Numbered from the stretch's first letter, positions 12,770 through 43,454 are shown. The stretch: 64,000 nucleotides of DNA from Coleofasciculus chthonoplastes F2-STO-03 (GCA_040222015.1 JAVJWO010000047.1:32001-96000), one strand, 5' to 3'. Made by a program: numbers and translations. Notes: generated by a model not told the origin, from the letters alone.

Positions 12770-14050
12770 CTATGGAAAGACACGGCCAGGGTGGGTCATG
12801 GGGGCGCTGGGACTGTTGTAGATATCCCATTCCTCAATCCCCCGATCGCGTAGAATGGTTTCGGCTTGTTGAATTTGCTCATCTGTTCCTTGAATCAAAA
12901 CTAAATAATCCCCATGAGAAAGGCGATCGCTATAGTTTTTGGCTTGCTCTTCGGGAACGCCTAAGTTGGCAAGTATACCCACTAAACCACCTGCGGCTGC
13001 GCCAATGGCTCCTCCCCCTAATGCAGATGCGATCGCAGCGGCTTCGCTTCCTACAAATACTACCGGACCAACCCCAGGAACCGCGACGGTGACTAACCCA
13101 ACCAGTAATCCCGTTAATCCCCCCAAGACACCTCCAGCAACAGTTCCGGTGGCTGCATCTTTGGCTTTTTCATGACTCACGGGATCGGTGACTTTCACCC
13201 CAGACACCTGATCGGGATGTTTGGCGTCTTTGGCAATAACCGAAACGTGGTTCATGTCAAATCCAGCCGCTTTTAATCCATCAAGAGCCTTTTTTAAATG
13301 TTGCTCGTAAGAAAAGACACCAATCGCTCGCTGATTTTGGGTCACGGGTGCGGGTGCTGTGGGGGGAGTCATTGGGGTGACACTCGTCGGCGTTGCACCT
13401 AACGGTTCACCAAAGGGTCCGGTGTACGCCGCGCCTAGGGGTGTGGGAGAGCCAACCGGAGCCGCCGCCATTGGCTGTGTGTAGCCGACAGGGGAAGTAT
13501 TCACTTCCGGGCGCTCATAAGTTCTCCACTCTTGAATACCGTGAGGTTTCAGGATAGAGGTTGCACGGGTCATCTCTGCTGCTGTGCCATCAACTAGAAT
13601 TAAATAATCTCCTTTCTCTAAGCGATCGTGGTAAAGTTTCGCTTCGGCTTCGGGAACTTCTAATCCCAGTAACGCCCCAAATAAGCCGCCAGCTGCACTA
13701 CCAACCGCTCCACCTAGCAGTGTATTGCCAATCACTGAAACAGCTGCACCCCCGACTAAAATGGGTCCAACTCCAGGAAGCGCGATCAGCGTACCAATTA
13801 ACCCAACAATCCCTCCTGTCACTCCTCCCGCAACCGCACCAGCCGCCGCACCTTCACCTGCTTCATTTTCGGTATCGTCATGCACTTCCACACCAGCAAT
13901 TTGCTCCTCATTCCGAGCAATAACTGAGACTTGATTCATGGGAAAATTTGCATCTCTCAGATTTTTAAGAGCCTCTTCGGTGGCTTGTCGCGTTGGAAAG
14001 ACACCAACACCGCGTTGAGATTGACCTAATGTCATAGTATCCGTCTCCAT
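12770..14050 (-). CDS. General stress protein-like membrane protein with two tandem Gly/Ala-rich domains
   Basis: Two copies of (R)AIGVF...VSVIA...GG(V/L)...PGVGP...LGVPEE...Y...GDYL separated by a Pro/Thr linker. Confidence 0.7.
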   Translation of the reverse strand: METDTMTLGQSQRGVGVFPTRQATEEALKNLRDANFPMNQVSVIARNEEQIAGVEVHDDTENEAGEGAAAGAVAGGVTGGIVGLIGTLIALPGVGPILVGGAAVSVIGNTLLGGAVGSAAGGLFGALLGLEVPEAEAKLYHDRLEKGDYLILVDGTAAEMTRATSILKPHGIQEWRTYERPEVNTSPVGYTQPMAAAPVGSPTPLGAAYTGPFGEPLGATPTSVTPMTPPTAPAPVTQNQRAIGVFSYEQHLKKALDGLKAAGFDMNHVSVIAKDAKHPDQVSGVKVTDPVSHEKAKDAATGTVAGGVLGGLTGLLVGLVTVAVPGVGPVVFVGSEAAAIASALGGGAIGAAAGGLVGILANLGVPEEQAKNYSDRLSHGDYLVLIQGTDEQIQQAETILRDRGIEEWDIYNSPSAPMTHPGRVFP

Positions 14051-32104: not shown

Positions 32105-33082
32105 TTAAGGTTTTTTCATCGGCGTTTTCTTCCTCTTCTTCTTCGCCTTGCTTTTCTCATAATCAATTTCCCTAAGCTTCTTAGTAATTCGGCTAAAATA
32201 CTCTTGCAGATAGGCTTCCAATGTGGTTGTGTCTTGGGGCTCAAGACCAAAAACCGGATAAGCCTCATCCATGGAAGCCATCATCGGTTTCCCCGTCGCT
32301 AACACCTCCGTGAATGCCAAGCGATCCGCGATATTCCACCCCCACTGAAAGAAGCGGGTAATCTGGCGCATCGCCCGCAAGAAATTAATCGGGAGTCGAG
32401 CAATCCTGGCATCCTTTGCCGAGAGTCGCTCACATAGACTAATAATCTCATCGGCTCGCCAAGCTCGTGTTCCCACAACCGGAAAGATTTTATTTGTCGT
32501 TTCCGGAACCTCAAGAGCGCGAACGGCAAATTTAGCGATATCCTGAGTATCCATATACGCCGTGGGCGCCGCTTTCCCAGTAATCCAAACCGCTTGCCCT
32601 TCCAGGATGGGTACAGCATACTGCATAATCAGCCCTTGCATAAACCCAGCGGGCTGCAAGATGGTGTAGTTTAATCCCGATTCTGCCAGAAACACTTCAG
32701 TACACCGTTTAATCTCCATCAACGGCACCTTGGGGAATTTCTCACAATTGAGAATCGAGAAAAAGACAAAGCGTTCCACTCCCGCCGCCGCCGCCGCTTG
32801 AATCAGCGCCACCTTGCCATCCCAGTCTACCTGTTTAATCGTCAGAGATCCTGTTGGTCTAGAGGTTGCTGCATCAATCACGGCGGTTATGCCTTCAAGA
32901 GCAGGGGGTAACGTCTGTGGTTCACACAGGTTACCTTGAACCAATTCCGCTCCCCATTCTTTCAAAAACGTGGCTTTCCTAGGGCTACGCACTAGACAGC
33001 GTACCTGATGACCTTCATCCAGCGCCCGACGAACCACCTGTCTTCCTAAAGTGCCTGTTGCACCGACGACCAACAAGTTCAT
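32105..33082 (-). CDS. Ycf39-like atypical SDR / NmrA family NAD(P)-binding protein
   Basis: VGATGTLGRQV, FLKEWGAELV, VDWDGKVALIQAA and DRLAF; adjacent to petM. Confidence 0.85.
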   Translation of the reverse strand: MNLLVVGATGTLGRQVVRRALDEGHQVRCLVRSPRKATFLKEWGAELVQGNLCEPQTLPPALEGITAVIDAATSRPTGSLTIKQVDWDGKVALIQAAAAAGVERFVFFSILNCEKFPKVPLMEIKRCTEVFLAESGLNYTILQPAGFMQGLIMQYAVPILEGQAVWITGKAAPTAYMDTQDIAKFAVRALEVPETTNKIFPVVGTRAWRADEIISLCERLSAKDARIARLPINFLRAMRQITRFFQWGWNIADRLAFTEVLATGKPMMASMDEAYPVFGLEPQDTTTLEAYLQEYFSRITKKLREIDYEKSKAKKKRKKTPMKKP

Positions 33083-33286
33083 TTATAAAATTTTGCCTGT
33101 AAACTTAACATTTCTATATAATTCTATCAGAATTTGTCATTGGTCATTGGTCTTTTGTCCTTTGTCATTCGTCATTCGTCGTTTAGTCGGGGCGGGTGTA
33201 GGGTGCGTTAGCGAAGCGTAACGCACCATTGCAAACTGACACACCGAGCGAAGTCGAGGTGTTCCCCATCACCCCATCACACAAAT

Positions 33287-33391
33287 CTACCCTTCGCCGC
33301 CTTGGATTTTGAGTAACAAAAATCCCAAACCCATACCCACGAGAATTAGAGTAAAGGATAGTACAGCAGCATTGAAAATTTCAGCGTTCAT
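33287..33391 (-). CDS. petM: Cytochrome b6f subunit PetM (missing from the ORF track)
   Basis: Own translation: [42 protein letters not shown] upstream. Confidence 0.92.
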
Positions 33392-33463
33392 GTGTTATCT
33401 CCTCTGGCGATCGCTAAACAGGCTCTAAGTTATAAGATTATCGTGATTGGGTTCAAATCGAAA

Positions 33464-34564
33464 ATGAAAACAGAAAAACATTTGTTTACACAATCAAGCC
33501 ATCCCCCCCGAGGGCGTCCCCGTTTAGCTGTCACCTTGGGTGATCCGGCGGGGATTGGTGCGGAGGTGGTGCTGAAGGCGTTGGCAGATGAGCAGATGAC
33601 TCAGGATGCTGATATAACAGTCATTGGCAGTCGCTCGTTGTTACAGAAGGCGTATCAGGAATTGCGGCACACCGTAGACAGTACCACGCCTCTAGCTGAA
33701 CCGGATAACCTATCCATATTAGATATCCCTTTAGACGCCTCAACCGAACGTCAGATTACCCTGGGGCGGGGAAATGCGGCGAGTGGAGAGGCGAGTTTTG
33801 CTTACTTGAAACGTGCGATCGCGCAAACCTTGGCGGGTGAGTTTGAGGGAATTGTCACCGCGCCGATTGCCAAGTCATTCTGGAAAGCCGCCGGACATGA
33901 TTATCCCGGTCAAACCGAAGTGCTAGCACAGGCGGCTGGTGTAGAGCGATTCGGGATGTTATTCGTCGCGCGATCGCCTCATACCGGGTGGCTATTGCGA
34001 ACCCTGTTAGCCACAACCCATATTCCCTTGGATCAAGTCCCCCATACCTTAACCCCAGACTTGATGAGAACAAAACTGGATTTACTGGTGGAGTGCTTAC
34101 GGCTGGAGTTTGGCGTAGAAACCCCTCGCATTGCCATTTCTGGGTTAAATCCCCACAGTGGCGAACAGGGACAATTAGGGAGTGAGGAAAAAGACTGGTT
34201 GATTCCCTGGCTCGAACAGGAACGACAGCAACGTCCTCAGCTAAAATTAGATGGACCGGTACCACCCGATACCCTTTGGGTAAAAGCGGGTCAAGCCTGG
34301 TACGATAATCCGGCAATCCCCAATCTCCCCGATGCATACTTGGCACTTTATCATGACCAAGGCTTAATTCCGGTTAAACTCATGGCATTTGACCGAGCGA
34401 TTAACACCACAATTGGTCTACCCTTTGTGCGAACCTCTCCGGATCACGGTACAGCTTATGATATTGCCGGTCAGGGAATTGCTAATCCTACCAGTATGAA
34501 AGCGGCGATTCAACTAGCGGCACAATTGGTGCGACACAGGCAATTTTTGTCGGGGCGGGTTTGA
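33464..34564 (+). CDS. pdxA: 4-hydroxythreonine-4-phosphate dehydrogenase
   Basis: [35 protein letters not shown] and [14 protein letters not shown]; start uncertain. Confidence 0.97.
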
Positions 34565-34761
34565 CGGATAAGTAGGTAGGGATAATAAAAGTTAACGGCA
34601 CAGATCGTCATTACTAAACCCACCCTGCCAAATCATCAATAATTATCATATTTAATTGATTCTGTCAAGAGGTGATTCCGATAAAGCTAGATGTTAGCGT
34701 AGTGGAGCTAGTCCCTCTTTTTCGGCTGAGTCATAGGATAGCAGTAGGATCAAGCAGAGTA

Positions 34762-37700
34762 ATGATAGAACAGGATCTCAAAGGCGATCGCTCCTTAGTT
34801 TTAGAAACAGCATGGCAGCGATATGCCCAGCTTAAAACCCAAGCTGCAATCACTTATAGACAATATTTGAGTCTTCGGGGCGGATCAATTTTGCTCAGTG
34901 CGATCGCCACATTCCTAGCGGTGGTTATCGCCAGTACAGATAGGCAACTCATCGCCGCCCCACCGGGACGACTATTAATCATTGGTTTAGTTTTAGTTCC
35001 GATTATCAATGTGATCATTTTGGCGATTAGTCGCAACCTGCAACAAGGACAGTATTGGCAAATCCTCAATGCTGGTGCTGAGGAAATTCGCAAAACGATC
35101 TATCTGTATCGGACATTGCTACCGGGACAAGAGAATCGTCATCAATGGTTGAATGAACGAGTTACAGCGATTCAACGCCAGGTATTTGATAGTATTGGCA
35201 GTGATTTAGTAATGCAACCCTATACCGGTAATCTTCCCCCGGATGAGAGGGGCGAATACCAAAATCATGATCCGGGTTTTACGGATTTACTGCCCCCAGA
35301 TTACTTGCATTATCGCCTAGAAGCGCAACGGCAACAATATACCCAAGAACTCGCCCAACTCAACACCACTCGCACTCGCTTACAAATTATCCTGTTCAGT
35401 TTGGCTGGATTGAGTGCATTGTTACCCGTTTTAGGGGTGAGTGTCGGTGTCTGGGTGGCGTTTACCCTGTTTTTGGCAACAGCATTCAGCCTGTGGTTAG
35501 AACTAGGACGAATCGACGATCGCGTGAATGCGAATAACCAGCTAATTGTAGCTCTCAACATGATTCGCGATCGCTGGCAAACGTTAACCGCCAAAGAGCA
35601 GACAGGCGAGGAATTTTTTCAGATCGTGCTGGCGACAGAAAATACACTCTGGAATTACTATAGTCAACCAATTTCCGAACGGCGTCAAATTGCCACACCC
35701 TTGCTGGAGCCGAGTGATGATTTACTCACAGAAGCGCTCAAAGAACCTGTTGTCGAACTCCCCGAAGAATCAAACAAAGTTGAAACCCTAGCCGTTGCCG
35801 CCCAAACCCCCAAAGAAACGGTAACGTTGGAGGTAGTCAAAAAAGTTGAAGAACCTCCTCAGGAGCCGCCGAAAAAGGGATTACCTCATGCCTTTGTGGT
35901 CATGCCCTTTGGACGAAAAAAAGGACCCGATGGGCTTTGGATTGACTTTAACAGCATTTATCGAAACTTAATTAAGCCAGCCTTAGAAGAGGCAGGATTT
36001 GAGTCATTTCGTGCCGATGAAGAAATGGTTAGCGGCGATATTTTGACGGATATGTTTCAGGAGCTATTGCTCGCTGACCTAGTTCTGGCAGATTTAAGCA
36101 TTGATAATGCCAACGTATTTTACGAGTTAGGCATTCGCCACGCCCTGCGTAAGCGCGGCTTGATTCACATCCAATGTGGTCGGGCTTACATGCCTTACGA
36201 CATTTTCAATGTGCGAACACTCCCCTATCACTGTGATGATAGCGGTTGTCCTGACCCAGAGTATTTACACAAAGACAAGCAGGCGATCGTGAAAATGGCG
36301 CGTGCCACCTGGGATTCGGACAAAAACCGCATTCATAGCCCAATTTTCAGTATTTTAACCGGACTGGATGAACCCGATCGCAAGTCCTTGCAAACCCCCC
36401 TGGCAACCGGATACTGGCAGGAATACAAAGAATGGCAAGAGCGGGTGGTGCTTGCCCAGCGACAAAAGCGGATTGGGGATGTCTTGTTATTAACCGAAGA
36501 GGTAAGTAATCCCCTAATTAAAGAAGAAGCCCTGGCGGAAGCAGGGAAAGCCCTAAAAAATCTAGGCAATCATGCCCTAGCGCTCAAAGAATATCGCCAA
36601 GGCTTGAAAATCAACTCCAAAAATTCTGAGTTTCGTAAAGAAGAAGCCTTTCACCTCAGCCGCTTAAAGCAATTTGATGAAGGGATTGTCAAATTAGAAT
36701 CATTGCTCCAGGATGAACCCAGAAATATAGATGCACTCTGTTACTTAGCTCGCATTTACAAAGAAATGTGGCGCAATGAATGGAAAGAAATCTCAGATCA
36801 GCCGGAGCGGTTGAGCGCTGCCTATGATGCCGCTCACTTACTCAAAAAAGCCGTTGATACCTATCTCAAAGCCTATCGGCTGAATCACAATCACTATTAT
36901 GCTGGGATTAATGCCCTAACCTTATTAGTCCTTCTCGATTATTTAGTCCAGCATTGTGACATCGATAGTGATGCCGAAGGAGAAGCCCTGCGGCAACAGT
37001 TGCCCAATCTCAAAGGGGCGGTTCAATTCTGCCTGGAAAGTGCAGTTAAGACCAATGAAAATGATACCTGGGCGTATGTTTCCTTAGGAGATTTAGCGGT
37101 ATTAGCAGCCGACCATCCGAAACAGGTAATGCGAGCCTATAAAAAGGCGCTAACGCTACTTTGGAACAATAAATTTGCCCTAGAAGCCACCCTAAATCAA
37201 CTGGAACTTTTGGCGGCGCTTTCTTTCCGCCCGGAATATGTACAAGCAGGACAAGTGGTGATCCAAGGGGAACTCGACCGACTGAACAATCAAACGGCAA
37301 TAACGGCGGATGAGAGCGAACCAGAACCCACACAAGTTATCCTCTTTTCCGGTCACATGATTGATAGTCCCACCAGGGAGCAACCGCGTTTTCCCGCCGC
37401 CATGGAAAATGAGGCGCGGCAAAAAATTGAGGAGACTCTGGATAAGTTAAAACCCAGTACCAATTGCTTGGCAATTGCTCCCGGTGCAGCCTGTGGCGGT
37501 GATATTTTGTTTATCGAAGCCTGCTTAAAGCGGAATATGAAGGTGGAGGTATTTCTGCCCTTTACCCCAGCTCAGTTTATTCTCGAATCCGTTAGTTTTG
37601 CTGGGGATAACTGGGTATCCCGTTTCTATACAATTCAGAATCACCCTAATGTGTCGTTTAATCTGCAACCGGAACGATTGGGAGACGTGCCGATAGGGGA

Positions 37701-37923
37701 TAATGCCTTCGAGCGCAATAATCGCTGGGCGTTGTATTCTACCTTAATGTATGGCATTGATCGCGTGCGACTGATTGTTCTGTGGAACGGTAAAGGCGGT
37801 GACGCGCCCGGAGGTACAGGTGACATGGTTCATCAGGTACGCCACTTAGGAGGCGTGGTTGAGCATATTGATACCACCAAATTTGACTACTGGAACACGA
37901 GGACGAAGGTATTAGCCAGTTAA
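34762..37923 (+). CDS. Multidomain protein: two SLATT (DUF4231-like) membrane domains, NDT/deoxyribohydrolase-like domain, TPR-S (DUF4071-like) repeats and C-terminal SLOG domain
   Basis: Two 2-TM units (W..L...AEEIRK..YLY; YL..RL..Q..Y); AFVVMPF..RADE..ADLVLADLS..NANVFYELGIRHA; TPR region with YYAGINA; LFSGHMID..GAACGGDILF..WNG..GGTGDMV. Start at 34762 or 34672. Confidence 0.8.
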   Translation: MIEQDLKGDRSLVLETAWQRYAQLKTQAAITYRQYLSLRGGSILLSAIATFLAVVIASTDRQLIAAPPGRLLIIGLVLVPIINVIILAISRNLQQGQYWQILNAGAEEIRKTIYLYRTLLPGQENRHQWLNERVTAIQRQVFDSIGSDLVMQPYTGNLPPDERGEYQNHDPGFTDLLPPDYLHYRLEAQRQQYTQELAQLNTTRTRLQIILFSLAGLSALLPVLGVSVGVWVAFTLFLATAFSLWLELGRIDDRVNANNQLIVALNMIRDRWQTLTAKEQTGEEFFQIVLATENTLWNYYSQPISERRQIATPLLEPSDDLLTEALKEPVVELPEESNKVETLAVAAQTPKETVTLEVVKKVEEPPQEPPKKGLPHAFVVMPFGRKKGPDGLWIDFNSIYRNLIKPALEEAGFESFRADEEMVSGDILTDMFQELLLADLVLADLSIDNANVFYELGIRHALRKRGLIHIQCGRAYMPYDIFNVRTLPYHCDDSGCPDPEYLHKDKQAIVKMARATWDSDKNRIHSPIFSILTGLDEPDRKSLQTPLATGYWQEYKEWQERVVLAQRQKRIGDVLLLTEEVSNPLIKEEALAEAGKALKNLGNHALALKEYRQGLKINSKNSEFRKEEAFHLSRLKQFDEGIVKLESLLQDEPRNIDALCYLARIYKEMWRNEWKEISDQPERLSAAYDAAHLLKKAVDTYLKAYRLNHNHYYAGINALTLLVLLDYLVQHCDIDSDAEGEALRQQLPNLKGAVQFCLESAVKTNENDTWAYVSLGDLAVLAADHPKQVMRAYKKALTLLWNNKFALEATLNQLELLAALSFRPEYVQAGQVVIQGELDRLNNQTAITADESEPEPTQVILFSGHMIDSPTREQPRFPAAMENEARQKIEETLDKLKPSTNCLAIAPGAACGGDILFIEACLKRNMKVEVFLPFTPAQFILESVSFAGDNWVSRFYTIQNHPNVSFNLQPERLGDVPIGDNAFERNNRWALYSTLMYGIDRVRLIVLWNGKGGDAPGGTGDMVHQVRHLGGVVEHIDTTKFDYWNTRTKVLAS

Positions 37924-38067
37924 ATAAATGTAGAGACGCGCCATGGCGCGTCTCTACAGGCTATCCTTGTTGCTCTTAAGGATTGACGTGGCTTAATCTT
38001 AAGATCATTGTCCTCGATGACACGGTTAAACTGATGGTTAAAATATTCTCTCTCTAGAGTCAATTCA

Positions 38068-38826
38068 ATGAAAAACTCCTGTACTTTAACCTTTAACAAT
38101 AACCTCACCGCCCATGTTGTTCAAGTCCACAGTCCCACGGCGTTGGCGGCGGCGTTGCACCAGCTTGGTCTTGACCAACCCCGTCCTACCCTGGCGTTAG
38201 TGGGTGGAGCGAGTAAGATTAGTGAGTCTGACAAAAATGATTTGCGACGCATTTTTCTCGAAGTGATTGCGCCTCTGGCTGAACAACTGGGAGTGGTGGT
38301 TGTCGATGGGGGGACGGATGCGGGGATTATGCAATTTATAGGTCAAGCGCGGACAATGATTGGTGGGACATTCCCATTAATTGGTGTCGCCGCGATTGGT
38401 ACGGTTATGCTTCCTGGTGTTAAAAGCATGAATGCTGATGCGGCGATGCTAGAGCCAAATCACACCCACTTTGTCTTAGTTCCAGGCTGCAATTGGGGAG
38501 ATGAATCCCCCTGGTTATCTGAGATTGGTAGTCATTTAGCTAAGGGGTTACCTTCGGTGACGATTGTGGTGAATGGTGGCGAGATTACCTGGCAGGATGT
38601 GGCGCAAAGTGTGAAAGCTAAGCGACCTGCGATTATCCTAGCTGGGAGTGGACGAACGGCTGATAAATTGGCAGCCGCATTGCAGGGAGAGGTAACCGAT
38701 GAACGAGCCACAGATTTAGTGGCATCGGGACTTTTGCACGCTATTGATGTGAGTAAAGATGCAGCAGCACTGGCTCATCTGATTGCACAGATGCTTTCTC
38801 GACCTGCGGATGCGTTGCCCGAATAA
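38068..38826 (+). CDS. LSDAT (TRPM-type SLOG domain) protein
   Basis: LVGGAS, VDGGTDAGIM, LIGVA, LEPNHTHFVLV, WGDE, VNGG and AGSGRTAD. Confidence 0.88.
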   Translation: MKNSCTLTFNNNLTAHVVQVHSPTALAAALHQLGLDQPRPTLALVGGASKISESDKNDLRRIFLEVIAPLAEQLGVVVVDGGTDAGIMQFIGQARTMIGGTFPLIGVAAIGTVMLPGVKSMNADAAMLEPNHTHFVLVPGCNWGDESPWLSEIGSHLAKGLPSVTIVVNGGEITWQDVAQSVKAKRPAIILAGSGRTADKLAAALQGEVTDERATDLVASGLLHAIDVSKDAAALAHLIAQMLSRPADALPE

Positions 38827-39091
38827 ATTGTCTCCAAATAAGGTGGGAAGAAGCGTTGACATTGATTCGGTTAAATCGGAGGTTTTAGAGTAAGTGTAAT
38901 TCGGAGATTGATGCTAATGTATTTTTTTTTATGACATAATAAAAATTAAGTTGATTGAGACGTATACCGCTGATCCTGTTTGAATGGTGCATAAAGCATT
39001 TGTTGCTAAAACTAAATTATTCGCTGGGTCATTTCATAATGTCTTAAGCCCACCCTTGTTGTATAGACTCTTGCAGATCAAGGCATAGAAC

Positions 39092-40489
39092 GTGGCAAAA
39101 AAGAACTCTTACAGTCAATATCTTAGGCAACACCTGAGTAACTTAATCGAGCAGACGGACTTGCCCACCTTGAAAAAGGACTTTATGAAAGCCCGGTGGT
39201 TGGATCAAGTGCTGTGGCTGGAAGGACGGGCAACCAAGGAACGCGATCGCCATCACTCTTTGAGGTTACTAACGATTATCGGCGGTGTTATCGTTCCCGC
39301 TCTGGTGGGATTCAAAAGCCCAAATCCTCAGATCCAGGAAATTGTCGGCTGGAGTGCGTTTGGGTTGAGTCAAGCCGTAGCCGTTTCCGCCGCCGTGGAA
39401 GAATTTTTCGCTCATGGGGAAAAATATAAGCAATTCCGCAATACAGCCGAAAATATGAAAATTGAGGGCTGGCAATTCCTGCAAATGGCTGGACAATACA
39501 GTCAGTTTGAATCCCACGACGATGCTTATGCTACGTTTGCCTATCACGTTGAGCAGTTGATTCAGAAAGACGTGCAGGGTTTCGTCGCTCAGTTTGAAGA
39601 AACAGAAAAGAACAGCAAGCAAAAGACAGAAGAAACAGTGGCTCAAAATTCGGCTCTAGCCCTGGAGAATCTCAACCAGCAAATGGAGTATCAGGAGCAA
39701 TTGCGGCGACTTGAAGCGGAAAAACGCCGCTGGCGAGAAGAGAAAGAGCGTTTGGAAAATGAGCGTTCAGCGTCCCTGGAAGATGCGGAAAACAATGGGG
39801 AAGAGGTCCAGACTACCCCGGTTACTCTCGAAGACTTGCCCCCGCTAGGTGCCGCCGCAATGGTTTGGTTTGAAGAAGACGAACCGGAAGAACCCAAAAA
39901 ACAAGCATCGATGAATGGTCAAGGAAATAGTGAGCCAGCCAAACCCGCCGTACCCCAACTGATTACACCCGAACAAGCGTCCAAAATAATGGATTGTCCC
40001 CTAGACGATAGCCAGAAATATTTACCGGGGGTATTGGAGGCGCTGCAAGACTATGACATTTTGGATAAGCAGGTGCTAATTGGTTTACTGGCAACGGTGC
40101 GAGTGGAAACCAACGGGTTTAAACCCATTAATGAGTTTGGTGGAACAAAATATTTTACTAAACATTATGAAGGACGCCGGGATTTAGGCAACGTGCATCC
40201 AGGAGATGGAGCGAAGTATCACGGTAGAGGCTACATTCAGATTACGGGGAGAGCCAATTATCGCACGTATGGGCAAAAATTGGGGGTGGATTTGGAGAAT
40301 AATCCTGAATTAGCTCTAGACCCGGAAATTTCTGCTAAGATACTAGCTTGTTACTTCAAAGATAGAGGAGTCGCCACTGCTGCAAAAGTGGGAGATTGGC
40401 GTAAAGTCAGAAAATTGGTGAATGGCGGCTATAACGGTTGGGATGTTTTTTCTAAGTATGTTGAGAAAGGTAAGGCGGTAATTGGTTAA
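39092..40489 (+). CDS. SLATT (DUF4231) - coiled coil - glycoside hydrolase family 19 fusion
   Basis: N-terminus RWLDQVLWLE, two TM segments and FRNTAENMKIEGWQF. C-terminus VRVETNGF..INE, GDGAKYHGRGYIQITGRANY, NPELA and VNGGYNG. Confidence 0.88.
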   Translation: MAKKNSYSQYLRQHLSNLIEQTDLPTLKKDFMKARWLDQVLWLEGRATKERDRHHSLRLLTIIGGVIVPALVGFKSPNPQIQEIVGWSAFGLSQAVAVSAAVEEFFAHGEKYKQFRNTAENMKIEGWQFLQMAGQYSQFESHDDAYATFAYHVEQLIQKDVQGFVAQFEETEKNSKQKTEETVAQNSALALENLNQQMEYQEQLRRLEAEKRRWREEKERLENERSASLEDAENNGEEVQTTPVTLEDLPPLGAAAMVWFEEDEPEEPKKQASMNGQGNSEPAKPAVPQLITPEQASKIMDCPLDDSQKYLPGVLEALQDYDILDKQVLIGLLATVRVETNGFKPINEFGGTKYFTKHYEGRRDLGNVHPGDGAKYHGRGYIQITGRANYRTYGQKLGVDLENNPELALDPEISAKILACYFKDRGVATAAKVGDWRKVRKLVNGGYNGWDVFSKYVEKGKAVIG

Positions 40490-40492
40490 GGT

Positions 40493-40693
40493 ATGGAACC
40501 CACAGAAGAAGTTTTTTTTCAAGTTCAGGAACTCAAGGAAGCGATTCAGGAACTTAAAGAGCAGATCAAAGCAATGCAATCGATAAATGAGGTGCAGCAA
40601 GAGTCAATTACGTCTTTAATTGCTCTGTCTCAGAAGCAAACGACGGTGATTGAGCAGCAAACCTCTGTGATTCAGCAATTGGTGAGTCAGTAA
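40493..40693 (+). CDS. Small Gln-rich coiled-coil protein
   Basis: 66 aa with heptad pattern; starts 3 nt after the SLATT-GH19 stop. Confidence 0.6.
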   Translation: MEPTEEVFFQVQELKEAIQELKEQIKAMQSINEVQQESITSLIALSQKQTTVIEQQTSVIQQLVSQ

Positions 40694-40755
40694 GGGAAAG
40701 ATACAGCAGCACGTTCGTAGTCAGCACGAAGCGTGCTGATAAATAGGGTCTATCA

Positions 40756-43380
40756 TTAATGCAATACTCTGACCAGCTCCTTAATTTTGGCAGACTGCCG
40801 ATCCTTGAATTGATCAGGGAAACTTAATTCTAGCGCGATTTTATTCGGCGAAGAACTACTGCTATCCCCCGGAACCAGAATTTCTAATGAGAGAATTTGG
40901 GTTAAAAATCGCTCCCGTGATTGGCTAATGGCGTCTTGACTTAACAGCAAGCCCACTAAGGGTTTTTCTTGCTGCATTTTCTTTAAATTATCAGGCTTAA
41001 GTAATTTAGCATTCGATGTAATAGAATCATCGAGTTCTAATCGCAAACTTGTCGCCCCAATTGCGGTCACTGTTGCCAAATAAAAGTCTCCTTCCCAAAA
41101 CAATTGAGCTGAAGCTTGAACCCGTTTGCGGACTTTTACTGCCCCTTTATCCACCTTAAATTCCTGGAAAGCACGGAAAAGACCTGTAGCCAAAAATCCT
41201 AAAGACTGCAACGGTTTATCCACATATTCCCGTGTTTGTGAATACCATTCCTTCACGTCGGAATACGTCACTAAGGTTAAATTATCTCGCTGGGATTGGG
41301 TGACATTAATAAACTTAACCGCCAATTCCATTTGATGCTCATTGACCGACTTTGCCACCACAATCTGAGCCTCCATAATCACCCTTGCCCCATAATCACC
41401 CACCAATTCAACTTCGATTTCATCGGGTAAATTGGGTTGACCTTCGACTTCTAAGATCATTCGAGTTCCGGTTTCCGAAACATCCAGCGTCACGCCACTC
41501 CAACTTTTGTCATAGCTGTAAATTGTTGCCCCCAGCCGTCGCCGTAAGCGGTGGGCGGTGCGTTCTTGGGGTTGTTCAAAGGCAACCAGTAATGCTGCCA
41601 TTAACAGAGTTAAGTTAAAAACACACCACAAGGCGTTAACCAAAACTGCCTCTGTATCCTCTGGACGTAGGATCAACCAAAAAGGAACAGACGCTAATCC
41701 TAACACCACCAAACCGGTTATACTTAACAAACCCCGTACAGATTGCCAATCAAAATTGGAGAAGCTAAATTCCCGTTTAATCAGGGTCATGTCTTTGTCC
41801 GTGACGTTAAAAGAACCCAGATTGGGATTAATTAACGCCATTGTCGTCACATACCCCGCCTGGAATGCCATGACAAATTCAAAAATTTCATTCCAGAAAG
41901 AAAAGCGCACATGCTTATACGTAATGTAGTTGGTATTAAGGGATAAGAGAATATGAGGAAGTGCATAAGCCAAGGTTTCCAATCCCAAACCCTGAATCGG
42001 GTTGATTCTAAACAATAAGAATAGGGTTGGCGCGATCGCATAAATCAGTCGGGGATAACCGTAGAAGAAGTGAGATGTGGCGCTGAAATAACAAATCCGC
42101 TGGGGAATCGTCAAGTTTAGCTTACGGTTTAACACTGGATTTTCAATCCGCAAAATCTGCGCCATACCCCGCGCCCATCGGACTTGCTGACCCACATAAG
42201 AGGAAAAGTTCTCTGGGGCGAGACCCGCAATCATGATTTTATCGTAGTAAAATGACTTGTATCCCAGAGAATGCAATCGGAATGCAGTATGACAATCTTC
42301 AGTTACGGTTTCGGTAGCAATCCCACCCACTTGTAGGGCATATTCTTTGCGAATGACTGCCGCTGAACCACAGAAGAATGCCGCATTCCAAAAGTCATTT
42401 CCTTTTTGGAGGACTTTATAAAATAACTCATTACCAACTGGAATCCTGCCATCTGTACGCAGGTTCCGTTCAAAAGGATCGGGATTAAAAAACCAGTGGG
42501 GGGTTTGCACAAAAGCCAGTTTTGGATCAAAAAAGAAGCCCGCTACGTGTTTAAGGAAATCTCGGACAGGAATATGATCACAGTCAAGAATCATGACCAA
42601 ATCCCCTTTGGTGCGACGAAACGCGGTATTAATATTCCCCGCCTTGGCATGTTCGTTATTATCCCGCGTCATCATCGTGCAGCCAACTTCTTCGCACATT
42701 TTTCGTAATTTTTCGCGACGGGCTTTATATTTCTCGGCTCGACCATCATCTAAAACATAAACCTTTTTTTTGTCTTCCGGATAGTCAATTGCAATGGCTC
42801 CAATTGCCGTTTTGCGGACAATTTCGACATCTTCGTTATAGGTGGGAATATAGATATCGACCTTGGGCCACTGGTCTTGAGGATATGCCGACAAATCGAC
42901 CGGTTCACGGTCTTGAATATGCAAGGTTTGAAAATAAGCTAGGACTAGGGTGAGGATGGCATAGAGTTCAGCGATCAACAGCAATACACAAAATAAGCCA
43001 TTGATAAAGGCATCAAAGTTGAGCGTGTAGTTGAGGCGATAGTAAAGATATCGAGATGTGGTGACTAAACTTAACCACACTAAAAAGAGGTGATAGTACT
43101 CACTAATTTGTTGATCATTAACCCGGTTTTCCGCTCGCACAACCACTTGCCCGATCGCCAAAACAAAAAAAGCGACAACCCCTTGCTGCCAAACCTTGAG
43201 TGGGGTAATCACTAGGGGAATCGAAATCACCAGTAGAAATAGAACCAGCCATTTTAAATGACTGATACCAATGCGTTCCAATGTACGGTCAAAAAACCGA
43301 GGCAGAACATCAACTAGCCAGTCAGTGGCAAAAGGGCGTCGGGGACGAAATCGCTGGAATTTAGATGAAAATGAGGACAT
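40756..43380 (-). CDS. bcsA: Cellulose synthase catalytic subunit (GT2 plus PilZ)
   Basis: PTYNE, LDDG, HAKAGN, DCD, QTPH, FFCGS, TED and QQVRW; PilZ motifs RTAHR and DVSETG. Start at 43380 or 43386. Confidence 0.93.
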   Translation of the reverse strand: MSSFSSKFQRFRPRRPFATDWLVDVLPRFFDRTLERIGISHLKWLVLFLLVISIPLVITPLKVWQQGVVAFFVLAIGQVVVRAENRVNDQQISEYYHLFLVWLSLVTTSRYLYYRLNYTLNFDAFINGLFCVLLLIAELYAILTLVLAYFQTLHIQDREPVDLSAYPQDQWPKVDIYIPTYNEDVEIVRKTAIGAIAIDYPEDKKKVYVLDDGRAEKYKARREKLRKMCEEVGCTMMTRDNNEHAKAGNINTAFRRTKGDLVMILDCDHIPVRDFLKHVAGFFFDPKLAFVQTPHWFFNPDPFERNLRTDGRIPVGNELFYKVLQKGNDFWNAAFFCGSAAVIRKEYALQVGGIATETVTEDCHTAFRLHSLGYKSFYYDKIMIAGLAPENFSSYVGQQVRWARGMAQILRIENPVLNRKLNLTIPQRICYFSATSHFFYGYPRLIYAIAPTLFLLFRINPIQGLGLETLAYALPHILLSLNTNYITYKHVRFSFWNEIFEFVMAFQAGYVTTMALINPNLGSFNVTDKDMTLIKREFSFSNFDWQSVRGLLSITGLVVLGLASVPFWLILRPEDTEAVLVNALWCVFNLTLLMAALLVAFEQPQERTAHRLRRRLGATIYSYDKSWSGVTLDVSETGTRMILEVEGQPNLPDEIEVELVGDYGARVIMEAQIVVAKSVNEHQMELAVKFINVTQSQRDNLTLVTYSDVKEWYSQTREYVDKPLQSLGFLATGLFRAFQEFKVDKGAVKVRKRVQASAQLFWEGDFYLATVTAIGATSLRLELDDSITSNAKLLKPDNLKKMQQEKPLVGLLLSQDAISQSRERFLTQILSLEILVPGDSSSSSPNKIALELSFPDQFKDRQSAKIKELVRVLH

Positions 43381-43454
43381 ATTCAATGGTAAGGGTTAGT
43401 GAACAAGAAGGTAGAAGGCAGGGGGAGCAATGTAGAGACGTTGCATGCAACGTC

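Follow-up and report, generated by a model that had tools for sequence, protein, structure and literature searches.

A cyanobacterial operon that may couple nucleotide signalling to membrane opening and cell-wall lysis

What is the role of four adjacent genes that bring together SLATT membrane hairpins, SLOG domains, an NDT-like domain and a GH19 hydrolase in Coleofasciculus chthonoplastes F2-STO-03? The original prediction for this locus was an undescribed signalling-lysis defence system. We addressed it within a 64,000-nt window, meaning the whole stretch of DNA that was analysed. The four co-oriented genes that had been called were all recovered as plus-strand ORFs at 34762-40693, hereafter genes A, B, C and D (Table 1). 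Their predicted flanks also held: PdxA (Pfam, 1.2e-99) lies on one side and a GT2/PilZ cellulose-synthase-like gene on the other. By Pfam these neighbours are housekeeping genes and form no defence island. Profile searches and predicted structure together returned each domain named in advance.

Residues of gene A are numbered throughout from the GTG start at 34672; its Atlas record begins at residue 31, which is the ATG at 34762. The palindrome in the A-B spacer occurs once in the window and 119 times genome-wide at ≤2 mismatches. Contigs from four runs end at it, and read depth there rises about 10-fold. It is a dispersed genomic repeat, unspecific to the A-D cluster.

Table 1. Positions of the genes and domains of the A-D cluster, counted from the first letter of the window.
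Feature	Position	Strand	Description or basis
Gene A	34762..37923	+	1053 aa from ATG 34762; alternative GTG 34672 gives 1083 aa
A residues 40-180, first 2TM SLATT-type hairpin (DUF4231-like)	34789..35211	+	Hydropathy, orthologue Pfam matches
A residues 205-335, second 2TM hairpin, SLATT_1	35284..35676	+	Pfam SLATT_1
A residues 398-575, predicted NDT/MilB/TIR-like (DRHyd-type) N-glycosidase domain	35863..36396	+	VIA fold match, invariant motifs
A residues 576-882, TPR-S / ASK1-like TPR solenoid	36397..37317	+	Pfam, fold match
A residues 885-1083, predicted YpsA-like SLOG domain	37324..37920	+	Fold match, invariant residues
28-nt perfect palindrome	37930..37957		A-B spacer; terminator-like hairpin
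Gene B	38068..38826	+	252 aa, stand-alone LSDAT_prok SLOG protein
Gene C	39092..40489	+	465 aa, DUF4231/SLATT hairpin, linker and GH19 endolysin-type domain
Gene D	40493..40693	+	66 aa, conserved helical small protein

Gene A encodes, in order, two SLATT modules, an NDT/TIR-like N-glycosidase domain, TPR-S and a YpsA-like SLOG domain. Its AF2 model has a mean pLDDT of 80.7, with residues 1-39 disordered. The C-terminal 689 aa have 2034 relatives among 8000 scored, the best 120 of which are all at least 61% identical. Three SLATT domains had been claimed for the cluster. Profiles identify two of them directly, the second module of A and that of C, while the first module of A is suggested by matches of its orthologues. 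Thus A 211-328 matches Pfam SLATT_1 (PF18181) at 4.1e-12 (46.7 bits, cut-off 26.3). The window's own A 40-180 gave no profile match at E<=0.01 and a value of 3.5 in single-sequence Pfam; among 22 orthologous segments, 15 hit DUF4231 and 8 hit SLATT_3. Aligned to the SLATT of C with hhalign, the first hairpin scores a probability of 39% (E 3e-4) and the second 42% (E 2.7e-4). Hydropathy places transmembrane segments at 70-88 and 101-119, and hydropathy combined with AF2 helices gives a helix pair, the mark of a two-helix hairpin, at both 70-119 and about 234-278.

The middle of A resembles nucleotide N-glycosidases. In the full model, residues 405-559 align to 2-deoxyribosyltransferase with a Z-score of 12.0 (VIA), and the domain modelled alone scores 13.0 against NDT, 12.9 against MilB and 13.2 against TIR (VIA). 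These scores slope gently, from 13 to about 10, into CheY-like folds, and the fold by itself does not settle the assignment. The motifs Y484-E485-L486-G487 and N479-A480-N481 are invariant in 88 sequences, and the model together with this conservation is consistent with the predicted NDT-like domain and its intact YELG glutamate, E485. PADLOC gave a weak "TIR effector" match to A (8.7e-5) and a TPR match. A profile of the domain reaches 19497 representative clusters at E<=1e-3 and 187 representatives at E<=1e-30. TPR-S is also present in 30 of 35 scanned relatives, and relatives of 430-465 aa match MAP3K_TRAF_bd at up to 4e-50. Judged by sequence, the domain is a member of the TPR-S/MAP3K_TRAF_bd family.

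The two remaining parts of A are a TPR solenoid and a SLOG domain, both anticipated by the original prediction. TPR-S (PF20308) matches at 5e-17 (62.8 bits, cut-off 27.6) and MAP3K_TRAF_bd (PF13281) at 5.2e-7 (29.5 bits, cut-off 24.1), both in Pfam, and the solenoid belongs to a region that superposes on the stress kinase ASK1 (5ulm_B, Z 19.4; 8qgy_B, Z 19.2 over model residues 409-882). At the C-terminus, YpsA (2nx2_A) aligns to residues 886-1077 with Z 15.7 and rmsd 3.6 over 164 of 178 residues, and it is the sole non-TPR chain in the first ten rows of A's fold matches. The Atlas lead for this end is likewise YpsA clusters (0.87). Nine residues are invariant in 88 sequences (G894 H895, G938 C941 G942 D944 E949, G1047 G1048). 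The domain gave no PDB profile match, and hhalign against LSDAT gave a probability of 0.1% with shallow alignments. Single-sequence Pfam matched neither this SLOG domain nor the NDT-like domain, so both calls rest on predicted structure. The claim of two different SLOG domains is borne out by gene B, which matches LSDAT_prok (PF18171) at 7.9e-72 (241.1 bits, cut-off 25.4).

Gene C, a single copy in its genome, joins a SLATT hairpin to a muramidase. Residues 1-200 match DUF4231 (PF14015; Pfam, 7e-28, 97.5 bits, cut-off 24.7) and NCBIfam SLATT_1 (1.9e-26, 92.6, cut-off 41). The GH19 domain, at about 295-465, follows a charged coiled-coil and acidic linker in which an LPPLG..A..W motif (249-259) is conserved. 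GH19 had been predicted, and it is found by Pfam (PF00182, 2e-7, 31.5 bits, cut-off 25.5) and against PDB endolysins (PWe2 9ms7 at 5e-21 over residues 307-462; 4ok7 at 2.3e-15). E339 and E348 do not vary across 49 sequences, align with glutamates of 9ms7 and are presumably the GH19 catalytic pair. Hydropathy and AF2 place helices at 56-74 and, more weakly, at 84-102; the topology of C is uncertain because the second helix is weakly hydrophobic. If the hairpin crosses the membrane twice, GH19 is predicted to face the cytoplasm, and lysis would therefore require a large membrane hole, a point absent from the earlier reading.

Gene D starts 3 nt past the stop codon of C and encodes a Q-rich, helical protein. 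We found in it no TM segment, signal peptide or lipobox, and no family below noise in Pfam, NCBIfam or PADLOC. It nevertheless has a conserved core, QQESIxSLIALSQxQTxVIEQQ, shared among 40 clusters that are all cyanobacterial where named, and it is seen beside SLATT-GH19 genes only.

The four genes recur together elsewhere, a check that the original prediction had called for. Among 39 loci with a relative of A, B is present in 16, a C-type SLATT in 22, the GH19 part in 8 and D in 7. The order varies: A-B-C-D, A-B-C(GH19) without D (L011), C-D-A (L034, L037) and A-C. At each of the loci where a short form of A has no SLATT of its own (L021, L028, L030, L032), a SLATT gene comes next (4 of 4). 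The enzyme itself is exchanged at some loci. One locus (L033) encodes a TIRx3-WD40 protein, a SLATT and a separate protein that is a copy of A's SLOG at about 65% identity, and a second (L035) has the SLOG copy after TIRx3-WD40, where SLATT was not found. At a third (L048), LSDAT, SLATT, SLATT-C39-GH19 and TIRx3-WD40 occur together, with LSDAT preceding SLATT and SLATT-C39-GH19. In other cyanobacteria, a TIR-WD40 protein stands in for the NDT-TPR part of A, next to SLOG and SLATT genes of the same kinds. The muramidase varies as well, between unrelated families: C-type SLATT fusions carry GH19 in 68 of 120 listed clusters and a GH24 lysozyme in 19 of 120, and the SLATT is also joined to C39 peptidase, with or without GH19.

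A relative of A has been studied. In the accessible part of a preprint (10.1101/2023.05.26.542521), the Bacillus cereus MilB-like glycosidase-TPR protein BcTpr is reported to give phage protection, to produce a cADPR isomer and to deplete NAD+. We propose that A-D encodes a modular suicide system that works through a nucleotide second messenger, probably derived from NAD+, and most likely serves abortive anti-phage defence, a reading that we hold evenly balanced between right and wrong. The cluster fits it in domain identities, conserved catalytic residues, gene linkage and module swaps. Against it stand the housekeeping flanks, the lack of a system-level PADLOC match, the 14 of 39 loci in which a relative of A has none of B, C and D, and the frequent occurrence of C and D on their own. 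A would be anchored in the inner membrane by its two SLATT hairpins, with the TPR-S solenoid restraining the glycosidase domain until a trigger binds. E485 of the activated enzyme would then cleave a nucleotide N-glycosidic bond, the likeliest substrate being NAD+, to yield an ADP-ribose-derived messenger and/or NAD+ depletion. The product would be bound or processed in cis by the YpsA-like SLOG and in trans by B, the LSDAT protein, and the signal would open or oligomerise the SLATT hairpins in both A and C. The muramidase of C would wait on the cytoplasmic side and reach murein after the membrane is breached, and its access to murein would lyse the cell by holin-endolysin logic. D, translationally coupled to C, may be a brake or an assembly partner. 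The signalling-lysis logic originally predicted fits the co-occurrence, the module swaps and the BcTpr preprint; on our analysis it went too far with "undescribed" and overlooked on which side of the membrane GH19 would lie.

A bolder form of this proposal, which we advance tentatively and consider somewhat doubtful, makes C a holin and endolysin fused in a single signal-gated polypeptide, driven by an NAD-derived messenger from A, read by SLOG/LSDAT and held back by D as an antiholin-like brake. The SLATT holes would then have to be large enough for a tethered cytoplasmic muramidase to reach murein. If true, a bacterial immune or suicide pathway would kill by phage-style lysis from within.

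The same machinery might instead answer oxidative, membrane or nutrient stress, not a virus, through the ASK1-like TPR and cause programmed single-cell death in development or stress, with necridia or filament breakage as the outcome in filamentous cyanobacteria. ASK1 is indeed the best alignment of the glycosidase and TPR of A, the flanks of A-D are housekeeping genes, and the names attached to SLATT-muramidase fusions are mostly those of filamentous genera (Leptolyngbya, Leptothoe, Moorena, Nostoc and Anabaena). The accessible part of Kaur et al. 2020 also ties such systems to multicellular prokaryotes. However, relatives of A also appear in Microcystis, Xenococcaceae and Waterburya records, and they occur patchily (in 5 of the 401 cyanobacterial genomes sampled, plus Chloroflexota and Poribacteria), which suits an accessory rather than a developmental core gene. 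Since the sole tested relative, BcTpr, is moreover reported to be anti-phage in the accessible part of the preprint, we regard a developmental or stress role as unlikely.

Could A-D be two unrelated neighbours, a nucleotide-signalling or NADase pair (A and B) beside a SLATT-anchored autolysin for wall remodelling (C and D)? C and D are a separable module, mostly found without A and B. One genome (G346) has them without either, beside a Peptidase_M15 gene, and for 14 D clusters the longest contig has a length that is also given for SLATT-GH19 clusters, none of these 14 lengths being given among the A relatives listed. A C-type GH19 also occurs in SLATT-free C39-PG_binding-GH19 proteins (L042-L044, L046, L047). 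Yet in A-B-C triads without GH19 the third gene shares 55-57% identity with the SLATT of C, and A adjoins SLATT-GH19 in three arrangements whose A proteins are about 50-66% identical. The order of LSDAT, SLATT and SLATT-C39-GH19 next to TIR-WD40 in L048 likewise speaks for a functional link, and we judge chance adjacency distinctly improbable. That NAD+ depletion by A is the entire effector, with SLOG, LSDAT, SLATT and GH19 tuning or localising it and no diffusible signal being read, has in its favour that BcTpr alone depletes NAD+ in the accessible part of the preprint and that A relatives stand without B, C and D in 14 of 39 loci (5 of the 14 with <1.2 kb of downstream flank), but nearly all such lone A proteins retain two SLATT hairpins and SLOG, SLOG and SLATT are kept where TIR-WD40 replaces the enzyme, and the swapping of muramidase families on SLATT (GH19, GH24) argues for selection on wall lysis, which makes this account very unlikely.

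The second-messenger suicide reading can be set against known systems, beginning with the family to which the core of A belongs. Glycosidase-TPR-S proteins have already been catalogued as a family (by Burroughs & Aravind in 2020, as cited in 10.1101/2023.05.26.542521), and the accessible part of that preprint lists LSDAT, YpsA-type SLOG and TM proteins as partners of core Tpr. It gives N80, P81, N82 and E86 as key residues of BcTpr; A has N479, A480, N481 and E485 at equal spacing, a correspondence drawn from motif and spacing alone. Like BcTir/Tpr and core Tpr as described there, A places a MilB/NDT/TIR-fold N-glycosidase directly before TPR-S, and its domain matches MAP3K_TRAF_bd + TPR-S proteins of 430-465 aa at E<=1e-32. 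Unlike BcTir/Tpr, the cluster has no separate TIR gene, and its core carries two SLATT hairpins and SLOG in the same chain. The SLATT-GH19 muramidase and its 66-aa partner lie outside the core Tpr assemblies in section 9 of the preprint. The claim of an undescribed system therefore divides: the glycosidase-TPR-S core and its pairing with LSDAT, YpsA and TM proteins are catalogued, and neither a PADLOC model nor a description in the searchable literature matched the SLATT-muramidase effector and its small partner. PADLOC gave no system-level match for A-D.

Thoeris, with its TIR signal synthase ThsB and SLOG effector ThsA, offers the same succession of TIR-clan enzyme, SLOG reader and lethal effector, and at the sister loci the SLOG and SLATT genes are combined with TIR-WD40 proteins that are true TIRs. 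In A-D, however, the enzyme is NDT/DRHyd-like and TPR-fused, and the effector is SLATT plus muramidase where Thoeris has SIR2. No ThsA or ThsB model matched in PADLOC, none matched B, and A-D contains no TIR_2 Pfam domain. Nor do A-D or the flanking genes contain a CD-NTase or cyclase (Pfam, PADLOC), which sets aside CBASS and Pycsar. SLATT effectors also serve in CBASS-type, DRT and Hailong-type defence systems. As there, A-D sets a 2TM SLATT module beside nucleotide-processing genes, but it has no nucleotidyltransferase, cyclase or reverse transcriptase (Pfam), and it holds SLATT three times, once fused to a muramidase. In the accessible parts of two sources (PMC7159879, PMC9503650), SLATT is a predicted nucleotide-gated pore.

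Phage holin-endolysin cassettes likewise encode a membrane protein together with a cytoplasmic muramidase, and their endolysins are homologous to this GH19. C differs in being one polypeptide whose membrane part is SLATT and no known holin; D, unlike spanins, has neither TM segment nor lipobox. A prophage lysis cassette is rejected as the origin: in the 994 phage records that match, similarity is confined to the GH19 part, and not one covers >=80% of C. Finally, A-D has animal counterparts. A 409-882 superposes on ASK1 (MAP3K5) residues 95-650 (Z 19.2), and B resembles the TRPM N-terminal MHR1/2 (Pfam LSDAT_euk, 2.1e-15). One operon holds the bacterial equivalents of these two animal modules. 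In place of a kinase or TRP channel, these modules are joined here to SLATT and a wall hydrolase. If the bolder, signal-gated holin-endolysin form of our reading is true, it would give the bacterial counterparts of the ASK1 and TRPM N-termini a first function, in one pathway.

The cluster is formed by four co-oriented genes, A (SLATT-SLATT-NDT/TIR-like N-glycosidase-TPR-S-SLOG), B (LSDAT_prok), C (SLATT-GH19) and D (66 aa), that lie between pdxA and a cellulose-synthase-like gene, as the original prediction had placed them. Their flanks are housekeeping genes, with no defence island. The ATG is more likely than the GTG to be the start of A, because the long form is disordered over residues 1-39 in the structural model and the Atlas record has residue 31 as its first; residues of A are numbered from the GTG. 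An Rfam search of 33000-42000 at E ≤ 0.1 gave no match, and promoter and terminator scans stayed at chance level.

Coordinates of the cluster, its flanking genes and the TIR-WD40 gene sets of two related loci
Feature	Position	Strand	Remark
pdxA	33392-34564		PdxA match 1.2e-99
A	34672 (GTG) or 34762 (ATG) to 37923	+	ORF
B	38068-38826	+	ORF
C	39092-40489	+	ORF
D	40493-40693	+	ORF; start 3 nt past C stop
GT2/PilZ cellulose-synthase-like gene	40756-43386	convergent	
TIRx3-WD40 + SLOG + DUF4231 SLATT, locus L033	2043-7576		TIRx3-WD40 1397 aa, SLOG 218 aa
TIRx3-WD40 + SLOG, locus L035	3817-8645		1384 + 213 aa

Related Coleofasciculus contigs show 88-96% identity, and four metatranscriptome-labelled runs (X13, X15, X20, X24) contain contigs with relatives about 95-96% identical. 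In these runs one contig spans A, and a second runs from B through C into the start of D. Because contigs from RNA libraries are no proof of transcription and DNA carry-over is possible, we did not count them as evidence of expression. A 28-nt perfect palindrome lies just past the A stop (37930-37957); it is the sole copy in the window and belongs to a dispersed repeat with 119 genomic copies at two or fewer mismatches. The contigs of all four runs end at this palindrome, where depth rises about 10-fold. The sequence of the roughly 95%-identical A relative diverges upstream of about 34687 (window 34567-34700), and pdxA is covered in one run of the four, which together point to a different context of the cluster in that relative.

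Protein A combines membrane, enzymatic, repeat and SLOG parts. Pfam assigns residues 211-328 to SLATT_1 (4e-12) and 635-752 to TPR-S (5e-17), with MAP3K_TRAF_bd also matching (5e-7). For the first hairpin (40-180) the copy in the window has no profile match; among 22 orthologous segments, 15 match DUF4231 and 8 match SLATT_3. Two of the three SLATT domains originally proposed, at A 211-328 and in C, stand on direct matches, and the third is probable from its orthologues. Profile-profile comparison of either A hairpin with the SLATT domain of C gave E of about 3e-4 at a probability of about 40%.

In single-sequence Pfam searches, A 398-630 and the C-terminal ~205 residues (nt 37300-37920) stayed without a family up to E ≤ 10. 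A phmmer search of the PDB with A returned TPR noise only, and neither the NDT-like nor the SLOG profile drew anything useful from PDB sequences. Foldseek with the whole model listed TPR and ABC-transporter-like rows only; the two alpha/beta domains surfaced only in a wide structural search (VIA). The AlphaFold2 model (88 sequences, pLDDT 80.7), compared with 48,161 solved chains, resembles the ASK1 regulatory region (Z 19.4), and the ASK1 cryo-EM chain 8qgy_B covers the glycosidase-like domain and TPRs jointly (A 409-882, Z 19.2). YpsA (2nx2_A) matches A 886-1077 (Z 15.7, 164 of 178 residues), and a 2-deoxyribosyltransferase matches A 405-559 (Z 12.0).

Modelled alone (pLDDT 70.7), the NDT-like domain scores 13.2 against the TIR domain of TIR-STING, 13.0 against NDT, 12.9 against MilB and 12.4 against the SARM1 TIR, with CheY-like folds next at about 10. 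The predicted fold supports the assignment to this clan, though the fold score alone lacks sharpness; the sequence profile settles the matter. At E ≤ 1e-3 that profile reaches 19,497 representative clusters, 187 of which match at E ≤ 1e-30. TPR-S accompanies the domain in 30 of 35 scanned relatives, and relatives of 430-465 aa match MAP3K_TRAF_bd at up to 4e-50. Both D478-N479-A480-N481 and Y484-E485-L486-G487 are invariant across 88 sequences. Fold, profile and the invariant E485 bear out the NDT/deoxyribohydrolase-like domain with its YELG glutamate, just as the TPR-S and ASK1 matches confirm the predicted TPRs.

Two different SLOG domains had also been proposed, and both hold: the C terminus of A is YpsA-like by predicted structure, and B matches LSDAT_prok at 7.9e-72 (also LSDAT_euk, 2.1e-15; Pfam). 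The hhalign probability of 0.1% between the SLOG domain of A and LSDAT comes from alignments too shallow (Neff about 1.9) to argue against a common superfamily.

Protein C begins with a DUF4231/SLATT domain (Pfam, 7e-28; NCBIfam SLATT_1, 1.9e-26); a charged coiled coil with an acidic linker leads from it to the GH19 domain. The predicted hydrolase is sound: it matches solved phage endolysins (9ms7, 5e-21; 4ok7, 2.3e-15), with E339 and E348 unchanged across 49 sequences. Phage records matching C number 994, all in the GH19 part only, and none of them covers at least 80% of the protein. A hairpin of two helices with a positive N-terminal flank predicts a cytoplasmic GH19 domain; the second helix is weakly hydrophobic, so this topology is uncertain. 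D has a nearly invariant core, QQESIxSLIALSQxQTxVIEQQ (36 sequences), with no family match and no TM segment. A complex prediction for C and D scored 0.00 (mark 0.32), which decides neither way.

The genes do co-occur elsewhere. Scanning a single genome of each species gave 39 loci with an A relative, in Cyanobacteriota, Chloroflexota and Poribacteria, five of them close Coleofasciculus relatives and not independent. Within the flanks examined, B is present at 16 of the 39, a C-type SLATT at 22, the GH19 part at 8 and D at 7; 14 loci have none of these, five of which offer less than 1.2 kb of downstream flank. Arrangements include A-B-C-D, C-D-A without B (L034, L037), A-B-C(GH19) with C as one 560-aa ORF and D absent (L011), and two with a bare SLATT, which measures 265-374 aa in A-B-C and 179-203 aa in A-C. 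Short A forms without SLATT hairpins of their own (L021, L028, L030, L032) have a SLATT gene after them in four of four cases. At the Caldora and Symploca loci L018 and L019, a second copy of the last TPR and SLOG of A replaces B. The duplicates (L018 11420-12154, L019 11393-12112) are 67-70% identical, and the SLATT gene there is inverted, 2-4 kb downstream. The Coleofasciculus relative L003 has a partial second SLATT copy after D (13579-14045), 68% identical over C 1-84 and 53% over C 157-235.

C and D are a module separable from A and B. Genome G346 encodes a 470-aa SLATT-GH19 protein and a D-like ORF with neither A nor B. The D family comprises 40 clusters, 14 of which, judged by equal longest-contig sizes, probably share contigs with SLATT-GH19 clusters; none of those contigs matches by size among the A relatives listed. 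Across 401 sampled cyanobacterial genomes, A occurs in 5 and some part of C is matched in 64.

Parts of the cluster are also exchanged for others. At L033 a TIRx3-WD40 protein is followed by a stand-alone SLOG and a DUF4231 SLATT, and L035 has the first two genes of this set; the stand-alone SLOG is about 65% identical to the C terminus of A. This gene set looks like a TIR-based sister system. Locus L048 (3397-12884), beside recJ, encodes on one strand, in this order, LSDAT, DUF4231 (501 aa), DUF4231-Peptidase_C39_2-GH19 (731 aa) and TIRx3-WD40 (1490 aa). Among the 120 best C relatives, PF00182 joins PF14015 in 68 clusters, and the unrelated Phage_lysozyme PF00959 joins it in 19 (Nostocales names). 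Interchangeable parts thus recur: an enzyme fused to sensor repeats, as NDT-TPR or TIR-WD40; a YpsA-like or LSDAT reader of the SLOG class; and a SLATT that may or may not carry a wall hydrolase. Domain swaps on one module have flagged real effectors in other defence systems, and the fusion of SLATT to GH19, GH24 or C39 by lineage is a pattern of this kind.

Several other gene sets were seen alongside. At L049 the two DUF4231 genes of L048 lie beside an oppositely oriented WD40 gene (1554 aa), for which the families shown do not include TIR. Three proteins with DUF4231, 486-553 aa long (L045 8450-10108, L048 10192-11697, L049 7911-9368), share a conserved C-terminal tail, matched by no Pfam family, that ends CF[VA]WESD.DFDG.YGG...IYRL. 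L050 (8777-11349), downstream of an FHA-domain gene, encodes DUF4231-Peptidase_C39_2 (585 aa) and, immediately after it, a separate Phage_lysozyme (GH24) of 261 aa. SLATT-free Peptidase_C39_2-PG_binding_1-GH19 proteins (521-614 aa) recur in cyanobacteria with a second C39_2 protein (L042, L043, L044, L046, L047), joined in L043, L044 and L047 by a WD40 protein (about 960-1000 aa); their GH19 domains are 53-60% identical to that of C.

The proposed signalling-lysis defence system is partly supported: gene linkage and module swaps favour it, and its core belongs to a catalogued family. If the reading is true, the effector would act by wall lysis from within, and the operon would be a tractable bacterial setting for the ligands of YpsA-like and TRPM-type SLOG domains and for what the ASK1-type glycosidase-TPR module senses.

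Among the closest known relatives is BcTpr of B. cereus, described in a preprint as a MilB-like glycosidase (N80, P81, N82, E86) followed by TPRs, and reported there to protect against phage, make a cADPR isomer and deplete NAD+ (10.1101/2023.05.26.542521). N479, A480, N481 and E485 of A are spaced alike, a likeness of motif and spacing rather than of sequence alignment. The same preprint cites 78 'core Tpr' operons with partners including TIR, YspA, patatin, LSDAT, calcineurin and TM proteins (Burroughs & Aravind 2020). Published accounts place TIR, DrHyd and SLOG in one clade that acts on NAD+/ADPr and predict that SLATT is a membrane effector gated by nucleotides (PMC9503650, PMC7159879); lysozyme and papain-like peptidoglycan peptidase effectors are described in other conflict systems (PMC7159879). 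PADLOC gave no system-level match for the A-D cluster, and none of its models matched the SLATT-muramidase effector; SLATT paired with a muramidase was met in the literature searched as incidental co-mentions only, though Burroughs 2015/2020 may draw the neighbourhood. The original label of a candidate undescribed system goes too far for the glycosidase-TPR core, which is a member of a catalogued glycosidase-TPR family; the SLATT-muramidase effector with its small partner D appears to be a new element on it.
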